Positions 38,039-41,347 of a DNA stretch of 64,000 bases are shown piece by piece (positions within the stretch are counted from its first letter, which is position 1; the number at the start of each line of letters is the position of its first letter). The position numbers and the translations under genes were made by a program. The DNA comes from an uncultured Bacteroidota bacterium (GTDB lineage: Bacteria; Bacteroidota; Bacteroidia; Bacteroidales; UBA10428). The stretch is from the NCBI GenBank assembly GCA_963733535.1, contig CAVTDR010000002.1, positions 512,910-576,909 of the forward strand, read 5' to 3'. The notes under the pieces were generated by a model. It was not told the origin of the DNA. It saw only the letters and a program-made list of their open reading frames with translations, and did no database searches.

Positions 38039-41000
38039 CTAATCATTGAAACGCTTCAGGTGAATGCCCGAAACCTGTGAATTTAGGTCCTTCGCAAGAA
38101 TATCAATTTCACCCGCTACCTCTGCAATATCACCGGCTATTTGATTTTGCTGGTTGATATTTTGAAGCAGATCGCCAAGTCGTGTATTTATTTGTTCAAT
38201 GAAATCACGTTGCTCAATGCTGGCATGGGAGATCTCCCTGATGATTTCAATGGTTTTTTGGACTTCCTTAATAAAACCAAGAATGGTCTTGCCGGTAACT
38301 TGTGATACTTCGGCACCGTTTTGTGCCGATAAAGTAATCTCAAGAGAAGCGGAGCGACTCCTTTCAGCAAGCTTTCTCACTTCGTTAGCCACAACGGCAA
38401 ATCCCCTGCCCTGTTCTCCCGCTCTTGCGGCTTCAATAGAGGCATTGAGTGACAACAGATTCGTTTGTCTGAAAATATCCTCCAGTACGGCAATCTTTTC
38501 GCAAATGGTGTTTATTTCCGTGATATTTTTCTCAGCGGTCAATTTAATGTAATCCAGTTGGCCCAGTATTTTTTGGGAAATAACATCTGCAGAACCTGCA
38601 TTGTCAGAATTTTTACGGGAATGTTCTGTAATATCGGCAAGTGAATTTTCAATATTGCGGGCTGCTTCACTCTGACTTTTAACTCCATTCTGCAAAAATT
38701 CGGCTTTCTCATTTAAAATTTGTTCTGTTTTGAACAGCTTCTCACATTTTTCCCGAATCAATTCAATGACCTGCTTTAAATCGCTGGTGCGCTTATGAAC
38801 AGCCTCTTCGAGCTTTTTTTTCTGAAGCTTAACTGATTTCATACGCATGCGAAACAGGGCAACCAGAATTCCCGCAAAAAGAAGCAGAATAAAAATCCGG
38901 AACCACCATGTTTCCCACCATGGTGGAATCATCACGATATCCATGGTTGTGATTTTTTCCGACCAAATCCCGTCGCTGTTGCTTGCCCTTATCATCAGCG
39001 TGTATTTTCCGGGATCAAGATTCATATAAGTAGCCAGTCTTTTCCGTGCAGATGTCCGGATCCACTCATCATCCAAACCATCCAGTATATATTCATACTG
39101 CACTTTTTCAGGTGCGAAATAATCCAGGGCAGCAAACTCAATTTCCACAAAATTCTCCTTGTGAGTTAGTCGAAGCTTTTTTGTTTCAGATAGTGTGGAT
39201 GGAAGAATTACACGCTTGTGCAGCTTTTCGCCCGGATGAATTTCCTTTCCTGAAACGGATAGTTTGGTAAAAACAACATTGGGTGCCACTTTATTATCTG
39301 AAATATCTTCCGGCTTAAAGACATTGAATCCATTGGTTCCTCCAAAGAATATCTCTCCAGTGAAGGGACTTCTGAATTGTGCAGTATAATTGAAATCGTT
39401 TCCCTGCAATCCGTCTTTAACCGTATAATTTCTAACCTTGCCGTTAACCAGATTATAACTGGTAAGCCCTTTATTGGTAGAAATCCACAGGTTGTCCTGA
39501 TCGTCCTCAAGAATTCCATTAATAATTTGATTGGGTAATAAAGAATTAACTGCGTGATATATAAATTTACCGGTTTTATATACATAACGGACGATGCCAT
39601 TGGAGGTGCCTATCCAAAAATTTCCTTTGCTATCCTGGAATAAGGCACGCACATCATTGTCTGGCAAACTTTCTTTTTCGTTTGGGTTATTCACAAAATG
39701 TACAAAGGAGTGCGATGCAGGTTGAAATAAATTAAGTCCTCCCCCCTCTGTACCAATCCAGAGATTTTTATAGCGATCTTCAAAAATCACTTTTATATTA
39801 TCACTGTTGATACTTTTAGGGTTTTCTGCAGAATGGGAAAAGTGCGAAAAAGTTCCCTTTCCACGATCCATTAATTCGAGACCTCCTCCCATAAGTCCAA
39901 TCCAAAGATTCTTTTTTGAATCTTCATAAATTGCCCAAACATTATTCATAGCCAGGCTTGTTGGGTCGCCCTTTCGTGCCACATAATGCCTGAAGCGGCG
40001 TGTAACAGGGTTCATCAGGTTCAGTCCGTTGGAATAAGTTCCAATCCATATATTTCCCAGATGGTCCTGAAAAATCGATTTCACCACATTACCACTGATG
40101 CCATCAACAGCTCCGGTCTTGAAGTGTTCGAAGGAATTCTGCGCTGGATGATACAGGTTCATACCACCTCCGTCGGTACCAATCCAGATGCGTCGGTCCT
40201 TGTCCTGAAATATAGCCAGCACCGATTTATTACTAAGGCTGTTGGGTTTACCAATTTGCTGGGTATATCCTCTGAATTTGTATTTATAAGGGTTATACAG
40301 ATTCATTCCGCCCTGGTAGTTGCCGGTCCACAAAGAGCCCTGTTCATCAGTTAGCAGGCAATACACAGCATTATTACTTATACTCAGTGCATCTCCAGGA
40401 TCGTTCAATAAGTTACCCATGAGGTTCCCCTGCAGGTCGAAAATATAAATTCCCTCACCATCTGTACCAGCAAATATCCGGTTGTTGAATTCAACAAAAG
40501 AAGTGTAAATAGCATTTTGCAGGTTCGCCGGATTATAGCTGCCCACCATTGTGATCTGTCTGCTTTTTGCCTGCATCTTAAAGAGTCCGTTTTTATTGGT
40601 TCCAATCCAGACATCACCGGCCTTATCTCTAAGCAGAAACACACCAATATCAGAATTTGATTTCCGGTAGTCGGTCCGGTACACAAATTTCTGAAAACTT
40701 CCTGCTTTCAAATCAAACAAATCAATGGTTCCTGCATCCGAACCAATCCAAAAATGGTTGCTGTCTTCAGCTTCGATGCTATACACAAAATTACTGGCGG
40801 GCCCTTTGGAACTGCCCATTTCACTGCGATAATTTATAAATTTCTTCTGGTCAGGCAGATAAATAAATAATCCTGAACCCTGCGTTCCTATCAGTATAAT
40901 CCCATTTTGGGCTACAAATACTTTCTTTATATTATTGGATTGGTCTCCACTGATATTTGTAAAATGGGTAAACTTTTCATTTTTTCTGTCAAAATAGTTC

Positions 41001-41347
41001 AGCCCATTATTGCGGGTGGCAATCCAAAGATTAGCCTGGCTATCCTCCGCAATGGATGTTATAATGTTTCCACTAATGGAATGCGGATCTCCTGAAACAT
41101 GTTTGTAAATCGTAATAGCATAGGCGTTATAACAATTCAATCCATCGTTAGTGCCAATCCAGATAAACCCCTTACTGTCCTTAAAAATGCAGTTCACGGT
41201 AGCTTGTGATAAACCCTGATCGGTAGAAATATGATCAAACCGGTAATTCTGAGCTGAAATTTGGGATGATAGGCAGGCAAGGTAAATCCCTAAAAGGATC
41301 TTTTTGCAAAGCCCAATACAACGAGAAATCGATATCATATGGGACAA
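38039..41347 (-). CDS. Chimeric chemoreceptor: HTCS-type periplasmic sensor (Reg_prop beta-propeller repeats plus Y_Y_Y domain), one TM, and an MCP signalling domain
   Basis: 1102 aa. It has many Reg_prop-like repeats (e.g. D..G.(I/L)W(I/V)GT..GL). The Y_Y_Y region is [49 protein letters not shown] and the TM is [19 protein letters not shown]. The MCP hairpin tip is [40 protein letters not shown]. There is no HisKA, HATPase, REC or AraC region. Confidence 0.85.

Follow-up and report, generated by a model that had tools for sequence, protein, structure and literature searches.

The ligand-binding domain is the main basis on which chemoreceptors are classified, and it is well established that receptor classes exchange sensor modules. 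A Reg_prop/Y_Y_Y ectodomain is the hallmark of the Bacteroides hybrid two-component systems (HTCSs) that bind oligosaccharides and drive PUL transcription. The closest described examples are BT4663, the heparin/heparan sulphate sensor of PDB entries 4A2L and 4A2M, and BT3049 (3V9F). These sensors have a periplasmic module of two seven-bladed Reg_prop propellers plus Y_Y_Y, followed by a single TM helix without HAMP and by an output of HisKA, HATPase, REC and AraC domains; their genes lie beside the PUL that they control. Canonical MCPs, such as Tsr and Tar of E. coli, carry a 4HB or Cache sensor of 150–300 aa, two TM helices per protomer and a HAMP domain, and end in an antiparallel MCPsignal hairpin of symmetric length with a tip motif, methylation motifs and a C-terminal pentapeptide. 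The S-helix of sensor kinases and cyclases, a parallel coiled coil some 40 aa long, links the TM sensor to the output and has a central 'ERT' signature as its hallmark (Anantharaman, Balaji & Aravind 2006; PMC1592074). Within the window (the whole 64-kb stretch of DNA analysed), one gene, here called RegMCP, encodes a fusion of a Reg_prop/Y_Y_Y sensor with an MCP domain that is conserved and under purifying selection.

The RegMCP ORF spans positions 38039..41347 on the minus strand, a strand assignment that corrects the initial annotation, and would encode 1102 aa if the TTG at 41347 were the start. The database copy of the protein (P0001, 1099 aa, 100% identical) begins three codons later at the ATG at 41338, which is the probable start, giving a gene of 1099 codons at 38039..41338 that is delimited by the ORF, the Pfam matches, P0001 and dN/dS. 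As initially annotated from the letters, the protein has an ectodomain of Reg_prop repeats (Pfam 3e-55, 10 stretches) and Y_Y_Y (6e-18, residues 742–805) and a C-terminal MCP domain with a canonical tip (MCPsignal, PF00015, 4e-25, residues 913–1076; 89 bits against a cut-off of 34.6), all three matches exceeding the Pfam gathering scores. The reported lack of HAMP, HisKA, HATPase_c, Response_reg and HTH_AraC likewise held in a Pfam search, even at E<=1, and there is one strong hydrophobic segment, in agreement with the single TM helix that had been proposed.

The layout of the protein, with all features on the minus strand, is as follows. A predicted signal peptide or signal anchor occupies residues 4–32 (41252..41338), according to a hydrophobicity scan and a model helix at residues 3–26; this short stretch ends before QN as a signal peptide would and is probably cleaved there. 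Two seven-bladed beta-propellers follow at about residues 33–690 (39278..41251), supported by Pfam, blade motifs, the match to 4A2L and Foldseek; of the 14 blades, 13 were counted by motif and the last, near residue 665, was read by eye. The Ig-like Y_Y_Y domain lies next to the membrane (about residues 691–809, 38921..39277), and the single TM helix (residues 814–834, 38846..38908) corresponds to the Kyte–Doolittle maximum of 2.36. A juxtamembrane, S-helix-like coiled coil (residues 838–880, 38708..38836), recognized by its conservation and its likeness to kinase-type relatives, leads into the MCP signalling hairpin (residues 881–1097, 38057..38707), which is supported by Pfam, PDB matches and model helices.

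Sequence comparison with the PDB gave 4A2L (E=3e-119) and 3V9F (2.5e-93). The AlphaFold model has a mean pLDDT of 82, reaching about 90 in the ectodomain; the Y_Y_Y region forms beta strands at residues 688–803 (pLDDT 85–90), and the first 30 residues after the TM helix are of low confidence in the monomer model. Foldseek superposed the whole BT4663 ectodomain on this model (E about 1e-64, TM-score 0.88–0.91, about 787 columns) at an amino acid identity of only 29%. As predicted, the RegMCP ectodomain is thus a full structural homologue of the Bacteroides HTCS sensors, and the HTCS-type assignment made from the letters is borne out by the modelled fold. RegMCP shares with BT4663 and BT3049 the entire periplasmic module, the single TM helix after the sensor and the lack of HAMP, whereas the HTCS output domains are fully replaced by an MCP hairpin. 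Its output would be control of CheA, in contrast to the direct transcriptional output of an HTCS.

The likeness extends across the membrane. The segment PPWWxTWWFR-TM-...QKxxLExxVx(E)RTxEL, whose conserved PPWWxTWWFR motif just precedes the TM helix, is strongly conserved and common to RegMCP and its kinase-type Reg_prop relatives. Its coiled coil sits where HAMP would normally be, and is homologous to the same segment of histidine kinase-type Reg_prop proteins, which carry V-x-E-R-T. L846, T854 and L857 do not vary, and 42 of 43 homologues have R853. A heptad pattern and the R853-T854 pair are present, as in an S-helix, but the glutamate of 'ERT' is one position off, at -2 rather than -1 (family consensus V-E-x-R-T, and H-K-R-T in RegMCP itself). 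The segment may act as the parallel coiled coil between TM sensor and output that is described for S-helix linkers (PMC1592074), a likeness judged here by signature and homology.

At the C-terminus, PDB matches were to Tsr (1QU7) and Aer, with RegMCP residues 972–990 aligned to Tsr 385–403. In the model, helices at residues 872–972 and 974–1089 form an antiparallel hairpin. The tip (residues 972–983, including E978) falls in the conserved CheA/CheW-binding motif (972–990), and its residues are invariant across homologues of 38–91% identity. Relative to Tsr, a 36-heptad receptor, the domain has a 7-residue deletion, and in 28 of 34 homologues the arm from the tip to the C-terminus is 119 aa long, which makes 17 heptads. 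The window also encodes two Cache_3-Cache_2/HAMP MCPs identified by Pfam, MCP 1 (25468..27363, plus strand) and MCP 2 (28449..30494, plus strand). Aligned with both of these, the cytoplasmic domain of RegMCP shows a single one-residue gap before the C-terminal tails and a near-identical tip. This comparison of heptad class, which the initial annotation had called for, suggests that RegMCP belongs to the same, roughly 34-heptad, class as the Cache MCPs, the label coming from lengths and not from class-specific HMMs. RegMCP can thus plausibly join the same arrays as these.

RegMCP shares MCPsignal, the tip motif and the symmetric antiparallel hairpin with canonical MCPs, including the two in the window, but differs from them in several respects. 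Its sensor is much larger (about 780 aa), it probably has one TM helix per protomer after signal-peptide cleavage, the S-helix-like coiled coil replaces HAMP, and canonical methylation motifs and the C-terminal pentapeptide are absent. The 10-residue consensus [ASTG]2-x2-[EQ]2-x2-[ASTG]2, which also misses Tsr site 4, had no match in RegMCP or in 33 of 34 homologues; RegMCP does keep an E-Q pair homologous to Tsr E493. The same consensus detected two motifs in Cache MCP 1 and three in Cache MCP 2, the C-terminus of which (...NDFGSF) resembles a CheR-tethering pentapeptide. Given that canonical methylation motifs are missing family-wide, adaptation in RegMCP is probably weak or supplied by neighbouring receptors.

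All 43 aligned homologues (38–91% identity) have the same architecture with MCPsignal, and none of the 43 has HAMP, HisKA, HATPase_c, REC or AraC according to Pfam. Y_Y_Y was combined with MCP in 56 of the 120 best matches and in 86 of the 150 best representatives at 50% identity, so the family comprises at least 86 clusters at that level; all named examples come from Bacteroidota. Between RegMCP and its orthologue in L082 (90% identity), dN/dS is 0.09 overall; taken by region, it falls from 0.10 in the ectodomain through 0.06 in the linker to 0.04 in the MCP part. Cytophagales contain related proteins of about 1260–1300 aa (P0049; P0089, 'Flammeovirgaceae'; P0095, 'Marinoscillum') with the same sensor and MCP, in the same phylum. 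These have at least one and sometimes several HAMP or HAMP_2 units, linkers of 165–280 aa (about 90 aa in RegMCP) and longer C-termini, whereas RegMCP belongs to a short subfamily without HAMP. A neighbour-joining tree of 226 ectodomains contained 25 state changes, but for repetitive propellers such as these both alignment and tree are too crude to give a count of independent fusion events. With the cytoplasmic domain as the query, the donor MCP lineage was not identified, as the close matches were only fragments of the same family and the next MCPs were about 35% identical.

No description of a Reg_prop/Y_Y_Y–MCP fusion was found in a full-text literature search, although an earlier mention in reviews is possible. 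The suggestion that this receptor type was new therefore stands as far as the searched literature goes, but the architecture is not unique: it recurs in the clusters counted above, and JGI already labels members. The automatic label that it gives them is 'ligand-binding sensor domain-containing protein/methyl-accepting chemotaxis protein'. RegMCP is a real, uncharacterised variant of chemoreceptor.

Mobile elements flank the gene. Upstream are two identical IS4-family copies in tandem, both on the plus strand: the first, of 1636 bp, at 41510..43145 (transposase 41891–43126) and its exact duplicate at 43200..44835, after a 54-bp spacer. The transposase matched NF033592 with 153 bits against a cut-off of 115, and the ends are imperfectly inverted (CCCTGTAAGGCATACGCGTCAAC and its partner); no target-site duplication was recognized. 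The nearest IS end is 163 bp from the TTG and 172 bp from the ATG of RegMCP, with divergent transcription. An IS4 element had been noted about 175 bp upstream; its position is close to these values, but there are two tandem copies and not one. In the 172 bp upstream of RegMCP, the exact Bacteroidetes -7 motif TAnnTTTG is absent and only one-mismatch variants occur. An effect of the IS4 pair on RegMCP expression is speculative.

These elements could be taken to mean that RegMCP is an accidental or decaying chimera without function, assembled by mobile DNA. The tandem IS4 copies on one side, a group II intron 2.7 kb downstream on the other, and the rearrangement of the interval from NTP_transf_6 to Lactamase_B relative to L085, the closest syntenic che cluster, are in keeping with it. 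However, full-length orthologues of the same architecture occur in many unrelated contexts, every part of the protein has a low dN/dS (0.04–0.10), and the IS4 pair is a plain insertion between genes that has left the first 116 bp upstream of the RegMCP start homologous to the IS-free relative. This evidence effectively refutes the chimera, which we regard as extremely improbable.

The che genes of the window lie on the plus strand and comprise cheY (30543..30908), cheA (30908..32920) and cheW (32932..33423). CheY is a single REC domain (Pfam Response_reg 2.5e-24; best NCBIfam match CheY), CheA contains Hpt, dimerisation, HATPase_c and CheW-like domains by Pfam, and CheW was identified with Pfam (1.9e-32). 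The initial annotation placed cheA and cheW at 30905–33423, and both genes are there, but cheA most likely starts at 30908, in an ATGA overlap with cheY, judging from homologues of 670 aa that begin at the cheY stop codon. The end of cheW is 4.6 kb from the RegMCP stop codon, with the three genes at 4.6–7.5 kb; the che unit and RegMCP are convergent, and the group II intron lies between them. When CheA, CheW and CheY were run by tblastn against the related loci L001–L082, with flanks of up to 10 kb, none of the RegMCP homologues proved to have a che gene as neighbour, and no such receptor lies beside the L085 cluster. Linkage to che genes was thus rejected as a general feature of the family. 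The proposed wiring of RegMCP into this CheA/CheW was based on how close the genes lie, a closeness that is not conserved. No CheR, CheB or motility genes were detected within the window, and the che cluster lacks cheR and cheB both here and in L085.

To our knowledge, Bacteroidia are not flagellated. RegMCP could feed a Che-like pathway that serves transcription, secretion or biofilm formation instead of movement, a candidate route being REC-GerE (27531–28178), an orphan NarL/LuxR-type response regulator encoded between the two Cache MCP genes. The lack of flagella, the lack of cheR and cheB in the two clusters and the lack of canonical methylation sites in the RegMCP family, as would be expected of a system without adaptation, all fit this reading, as does the loss of the PAS kinase that accompanies REC-GerE in L085. 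However, the presence of that dedicated kinase beside REC-GerE in L085 indicates that the regulator is probably an independent two-component system, which weakens it as an output of the pathway. Moreover, a classical cheD...mcp-cheY-cheA-cheW-cheR-cheB set is present in L086, which is more distantly related, canonical methylation motifs occur in both Cache MCPs of the window, one of which also ends in a pentapeptide-like C-terminus, and several receptors with different sensors on one CheA are typical of taxis systems. We consider this alternative output rather unlikely; were REC-GerE the route, HTCS-like gene control would have been rebuilt in another way.

As regards the ligand, no SusC/SusD pair or PUL adjoins RegMCP in the window or its homologues in the nine contexts inspected, unlike HTCS genes. 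The nine neighbourhoods all differ; one homologue is directly upstream of a GH67 gene and one has a capsule-export neighbour, which is too few among nine for the ligand to be assigned by guilt by association, and this approach was rejected. A carbohydrate ligand is extrapolated from a small number of Bacteroides HTCSs. With the architecture and Che coupling as proposed, the cue could instead be a peptide, a lipid, a polymer on the cell surface of some other organism, or a mechanical or surface stimulus. Glycan binding is documented for only a handful of Bacteroides HTCSs, outside PULs the same ectodomain is fused to other outputs (GGDEF, SpoIIE phosphatase, Ser/Thr kinase, sigma-54 activator, adenylate cyclase and GAF), the identity to BT4663 is low, and the homologue neighbourhoods give no consistent carbohydrate signal. 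Nevertheless, all PDB members of this ectodomain fold are Bacteroides HTCS-type (hybrid or one-component) sensor ectodomains, the structure solved with a glycan ligand bound being that of BT4663. The host also encodes a sulfatase and T9SS-secreted Fib_succ_major, cohesin and LamG proteins near RegMCP, and the GH67 neighbour points in the same direction. We regard a non-carbohydrate cue as less probable.

Taken as a whole, the mechanism that we propose, in which RegMCP is a functional transmembrane MCP-type chemoreceptor with a complete Bacteroidota HTCS sensor, is slightly favoured. RegMCP would be a homodimer that closes in a scissor-like manner, as was reportedly proposed for BT4663, in response to a ligand in the periplasm, most likely a glycan-derived oligosaccharide. 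This movement would reach the four-helix bundle by way of both TM helices and the parallel S-helix. Placed in mixed arrays together with the Cache MCPs, the tip would modulate CheA (30908–32920) through CheW and thereby change CheY phosphorylation. Since Bacteroidia are not flagellated, the likeliest outputs would be control of gliding or surface behaviour, or another CheY-dependent response. Extending this to the whole family, as periplasmic oligosaccharide-binding chemoreceptors of non-flagellated Bacteroidota whose Che pathway steers gliding or surface behaviour through a scissor and S-helix, without HAMP or methylation adaptation, is considerably more tentative. If true, the receptor logic would differ from the piston/HAMP/methylation paradigm of Tar and Tsr.

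Sensor-module exchange is well established and annotation pipelines already label such proteins, which tempers the novelty of the fusion. Little is known of receptors for polysaccharide fragments. At 780 residues, an HTCS-type sensor fused to an MCP would, as far as we know, rank among the largest sensor domains that any chemoreceptor carries. RegMCP represents a natural domain swap: one module of sensor, TM helix and S-helix controls a histidine kinase in some proteins and an MCP bundle in others. Because this module is common to kinase and MCP, it offers a direct test of whether the scissor signalling proposed for BT4663 can control CheA. RegMCP also draws attention to what Che systems do in a phylum that lacks flagella, and it offers a concrete candidate for the means by which glycan-degrading Bacteroidota find polymeric food.

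The gene at 38039–41347 is an unbroken ORF on the minus strand, 1102 aa long when counted from a TTG codon. Its product is identical to a protein in a public collection (P0001, 1099 aa, encoded on a 710-kb NCBI contig) that begins three codons later, at the ATG at 41338, and this ATG is more likely to be the start than the TTG. Pfam matches exceeded the gathering scores for Reg_prop (3e-55, with ten repeats scored separately), Y_Y_Y (residues 742–805, 6e-18) and MCPsignal (residues 913–1076, 4e-25). HAMP, HisKA, HATPase_c, Response_reg and AraC gave no Pfam match, even at E≤1. 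Motif counting recognized 13 propeller blades and a 14th was found by eye, so two seven-bladed propellers are predicted. Hydropathy places at the N-terminus a short hydrophobic stretch that, with the SSQISA↓QN behind it, resembles a cleavable signal peptide, and one strong TM segment at residues 814–834; the receptor probably has a single TM helix. The hairpin tip motif lies at residues 972–983. The initial annotation had described propeller repeats with Y_Y_Y, one TM segment, an MCP end and no HAMP, HisKA, HATPase, REC or AraC segment, all of which these analyses bear out; its strand, start codon, IS copy number and cheA start required correction. Since kinase, receiver and AraC features are missing, the protein is not a hybrid two-component system (HTCS). 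By its signalling domain it is an MCP, atypical in its very large sensor, in its probably single TM helix and in lacking HAMP and canonical methylation motifs.

In sequence searches, residues 1–810 matched crystallised periplasmic domains of B. thetaiotaomicron HTCSs, including 4A2L (the heparin sensor BT4663, 3e-119), 3V9F (BT3049, 2.5e-93) and 3VA6/3OTT (BT4673), and the C-terminus matched Tsr, Aer and Thermotoga MCPs. An AlphaFold2 model, built from a 43-sequence family alignment, with residues counted from the ATG (M4 codon), had a mean pLDDT of 82 (~90 in the ectodomain) and comprised two propellers, an Ig-like domain, a TM helix (811–839) and the hairpin helices (872–972 and 974–1089). 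With Foldseek, the whole BT4663 ectodomain superposed on the model (TM-score 0.88–0.91, 29% identity, ~787 columns), and therefore the sensor is a complete HTCS-type module rather than a few propeller repeats. The solved members of this fold in the PDB are all Bacteroides HTCS-type sensors, and the BT4663 structure reportedly contains a bound glycan. By analogy with these relatives, the most economical hypothesis is that the ligand would be a glycan fragment; against this reading, database matches join the same type of sensor to many other outputs, outside polysaccharide utilisation loci (PULs).

Y_Y_Y and the MCP domain occurred together in 56 of the 120 best database matches to the full-length receptor. 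The fusion was also searched for exhaustively, with residues 640–1102 as query against 1.84 billion cluster representatives; among the best 150 matches listed, at least 86 further representatives (50% identity) carried both parts. Judged from these sequences, the fusion is a conserved family and no accident. Its subclasses differ in linker length between the Y_Y_Y and MCP matches (~90, ~130, ~170 and ~275 aa). The ~90-aa class, to which the window receptor belongs, lacks HAMP and totals 1085–1106 aa, and the ~275-aa class, from Cytophagales, carries HAMP or HAMP_2 units and totals ~1270 aa. Reg_prop, Y_Y_Y and MCPsignal were present in all 43 aligned short-class members, and HAMP, HisKA and REC in none of the 43. 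The examples with organism names are all Bacteroidota (Bacteroidales MAGs, Saccharicrinis, Cyclobacteriaceae, Flammeovirgaceae and Marinoscillum). Comparison with the 90%-identical orthologue in L082 gave dN/dS values of 0.10 (ectodomain), 0.06 (TM helix and linker) and 0.04 (MCP part). Used alone as a query, the cytoplasmic domain reached ≥50% identity only with fragments of the same family; the next MCPs were only ~35% identical, and the fusion thus appears old. Exchange of sensor modules between receptor classes is an established principle. No description of this fusion was found in the searchable literature, beyond whose reach key reviews lie, and annotation pipelines have already given family members an automatic two-part name.

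In the place of HAMP, the receptor has a highly conserved juxtamembrane segment (R835–F872), with L846, T854 and L857 unchanged throughout and R853 found in 42 of 43 sequences. Kinase-type Reg_prop proteins (e.g. ...QKRNLERLVHERTLELKE, ...QKKKLELIVKERTRRLEE) have a clearly homologous linker at the equivalent place, with 27–40% identity across the TM helix and 60–100 residues further. In this linker the kinase-type relatives carry 'ERT', the signature by which the S-helix is defined; S-helices are parallel coiled coils that act in signalling and lie between sensor and output (PMC1592074). The homology therefore suggests that the re-used unit comprises sensor, TM helix and S-helix-like stalk; compared with an HTCS, the DHp/CA/REC/AraC cassette has been exchanged for an MCP hairpin. 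The N-arm exceeds the C-arm by ~20–24 residues, which would fit a stalk of about three heptads from the membrane to the four-helix bundle.

The cytoplasmic domain aligned almost without gaps, along both arms, with the two Cache_3-Cache_2/HAMP MCPs encoded on the plus strand of the window (Cache MCP 1, 25468–27363; Cache MCP 2, 28449–30494), and the hairpin tips were near-identical. Compared with Tsr, a 36-heptad receptor, the C-arm has a 7-residue deletion, and tip to C-terminus measures exactly 119 residues (17 heptads) in 28 of 34 homologues. From these lengths, not from class-specific HMMs, we infer a ~34-heptad class, the same as that of the local Cache MCPs; mixed arrays with these MCPs would require such a common class. 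Under a strict pattern that would also miss Tsr site 4, the 10-residue methylation consensus was matched neither in the receptor nor in 33 of 34 homologues, whereas the two Cache MCPs have 2–3 sites. Methylation of the receptor is therefore unlikely, with the caveat of that pattern and of a retained E-Q pair homologous to Tsr E493. Cache MCP 2 bears a 50-residue C-terminal extension ending ...NDNDFGSF, a match to the x-aromatic-x-x-F pattern of CheR/CheB-tethering pentapeptides that would imply a CheR elsewhere in the genome.

Together with the Cache MCPs, the che cluster comprises a REC-GerE regulator (27531–28178), cheY (30543–30908), cheA (30908–32920) and cheW (32932–33423), all on the plus strand; cheR, cheB and motility genes were absent from the 64-kb window. 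The receptor unit is convergent with the cluster, and between them lie four small genes and, directly after cheW, a minus-strand group II intron (RT/maturase 33617–35026, 415 bits on TIGR04416; D1–D4 RNA domains 35057–35378, Rfam). The closest syntenic relative (L085, CheA 78% identical) has a conserved che gene order: DUF2807, Aminotran_5, MCP, PAS kinase, REC-GerE, MCP, cheY, cheA, cheW, a 217-aa ORF and NTP_transf_6. In the window, the NarL/LuxR-type response regulator has lost the preceding PAS-HATPase kinase gene (27363–28178 versus 5471–7279 in L085) and lies only 168 bp from the upstream MCP.

L085 contains no propeller-MCP, and Lactamase_B directly follows NTP_transf_6 (13386–14961), whereas ~18.7 kb separate these genes in the window (38039–56802). 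This block, which may be a lineage-specific insertion or a rearrangement, holds the propeller-MCP, an IS pair, pabB/pabC-like genes, a sulfatase, a GNAT gene and two large T9SS cargo proteins (49656–55668, minus strand). Both cargo proteins have Por_Secre_tail and, unusually for Bacteroidota, cohesin domains, one with Fib_succ_major and the other with Laminin_G_3. No cheA or cheW was found within the compared flanks of related homologue loci (L001–L082). Nine homologue neighbourhoods all differed, and in none did a SusC/SusD pair adjoin the receptor homologue. The only CAZyme neighbour seen was a GH67 alpha-glucuronidase gene, which lies 43 bp downstream of a 69%-identical homologue, in the same orientation (P0003, JGI sample 3300075153, 71-kb contig), and may point to a glucuronoxylan-related ligand. 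Because the linkage is not kept in relatives, the position near the che operon is lineage-specific and no evidence of wiring. The wiring to CheA/CheW first suggested from proximity would rest instead on the agreement in MCP class and tip. In L086, with a more distant CheA relative, the order is cheD...mcp-cheY-cheA-cheW-cheR-cheB, which shows that an adaptation system can accompany this CheA lineage.

Upstream of the receptor, two 100% identical IS4-family copies of 1636 bp (41510–43145 and 43200–44835) stand in direct tandem with a 54-bp spacer, their transposases divergent from the receptor; a single copy ~175 bp upstream had been noted, and the distance holds (nearest IS end to TTG, 163 bp; to ATG, 172 bp). 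The IS-free 90% relative has as its upstream neighbour the Aminotran_4 gene found on the far side of the IS pair in the window, and over the 116 bp next to the receptor start the two loci remain homologous (73%). The pair has thus simply inserted into the intergenic spacer, farther from the gene than the native region next to the start; the effect on receptor expression that had been suggested is speculative. The 54-bp spacer and the flanks of the pair hold REP-like palindromic motifs (GCCCT...AGGGC), and no target-site duplication was recognized in the window.

Elsewhere on the minus strand of this Bacteroidales window, a KaiBC-type timing or signalling module (15761–19466) comprises, one after another, a KaiC homologue (17769–19466), KaiB (17093–17464) and a PAS-HisKA-HATPase kinase (15761–17080), and a 674-aa ORF (9524–11548) has a weak partial receiver-domain match (E=1.4e-4) as its only recognized domain. 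GC content falls to 0.29–0.31 at 60000–64000, beside a phage-type integrase gene (60448–61677), possibly the edge of an integrated mobile element.

Best supported is the reading that this is a functional MCP that would signal to CheA and CheW and has inherited its sensor, TM helix and stalk from the HTCS lineage. A scissor-like closing of the sensor was reportedly proposed in the study of BT4663; by analogy, such a closing of the ectodomain would be passed on via the S-helix. A tentative and rather doubtful role for this receptor would be the direct chemoreception of oligosaccharides, linked to a non-flagellar behaviour by a mechanism without HAMP or methylation.
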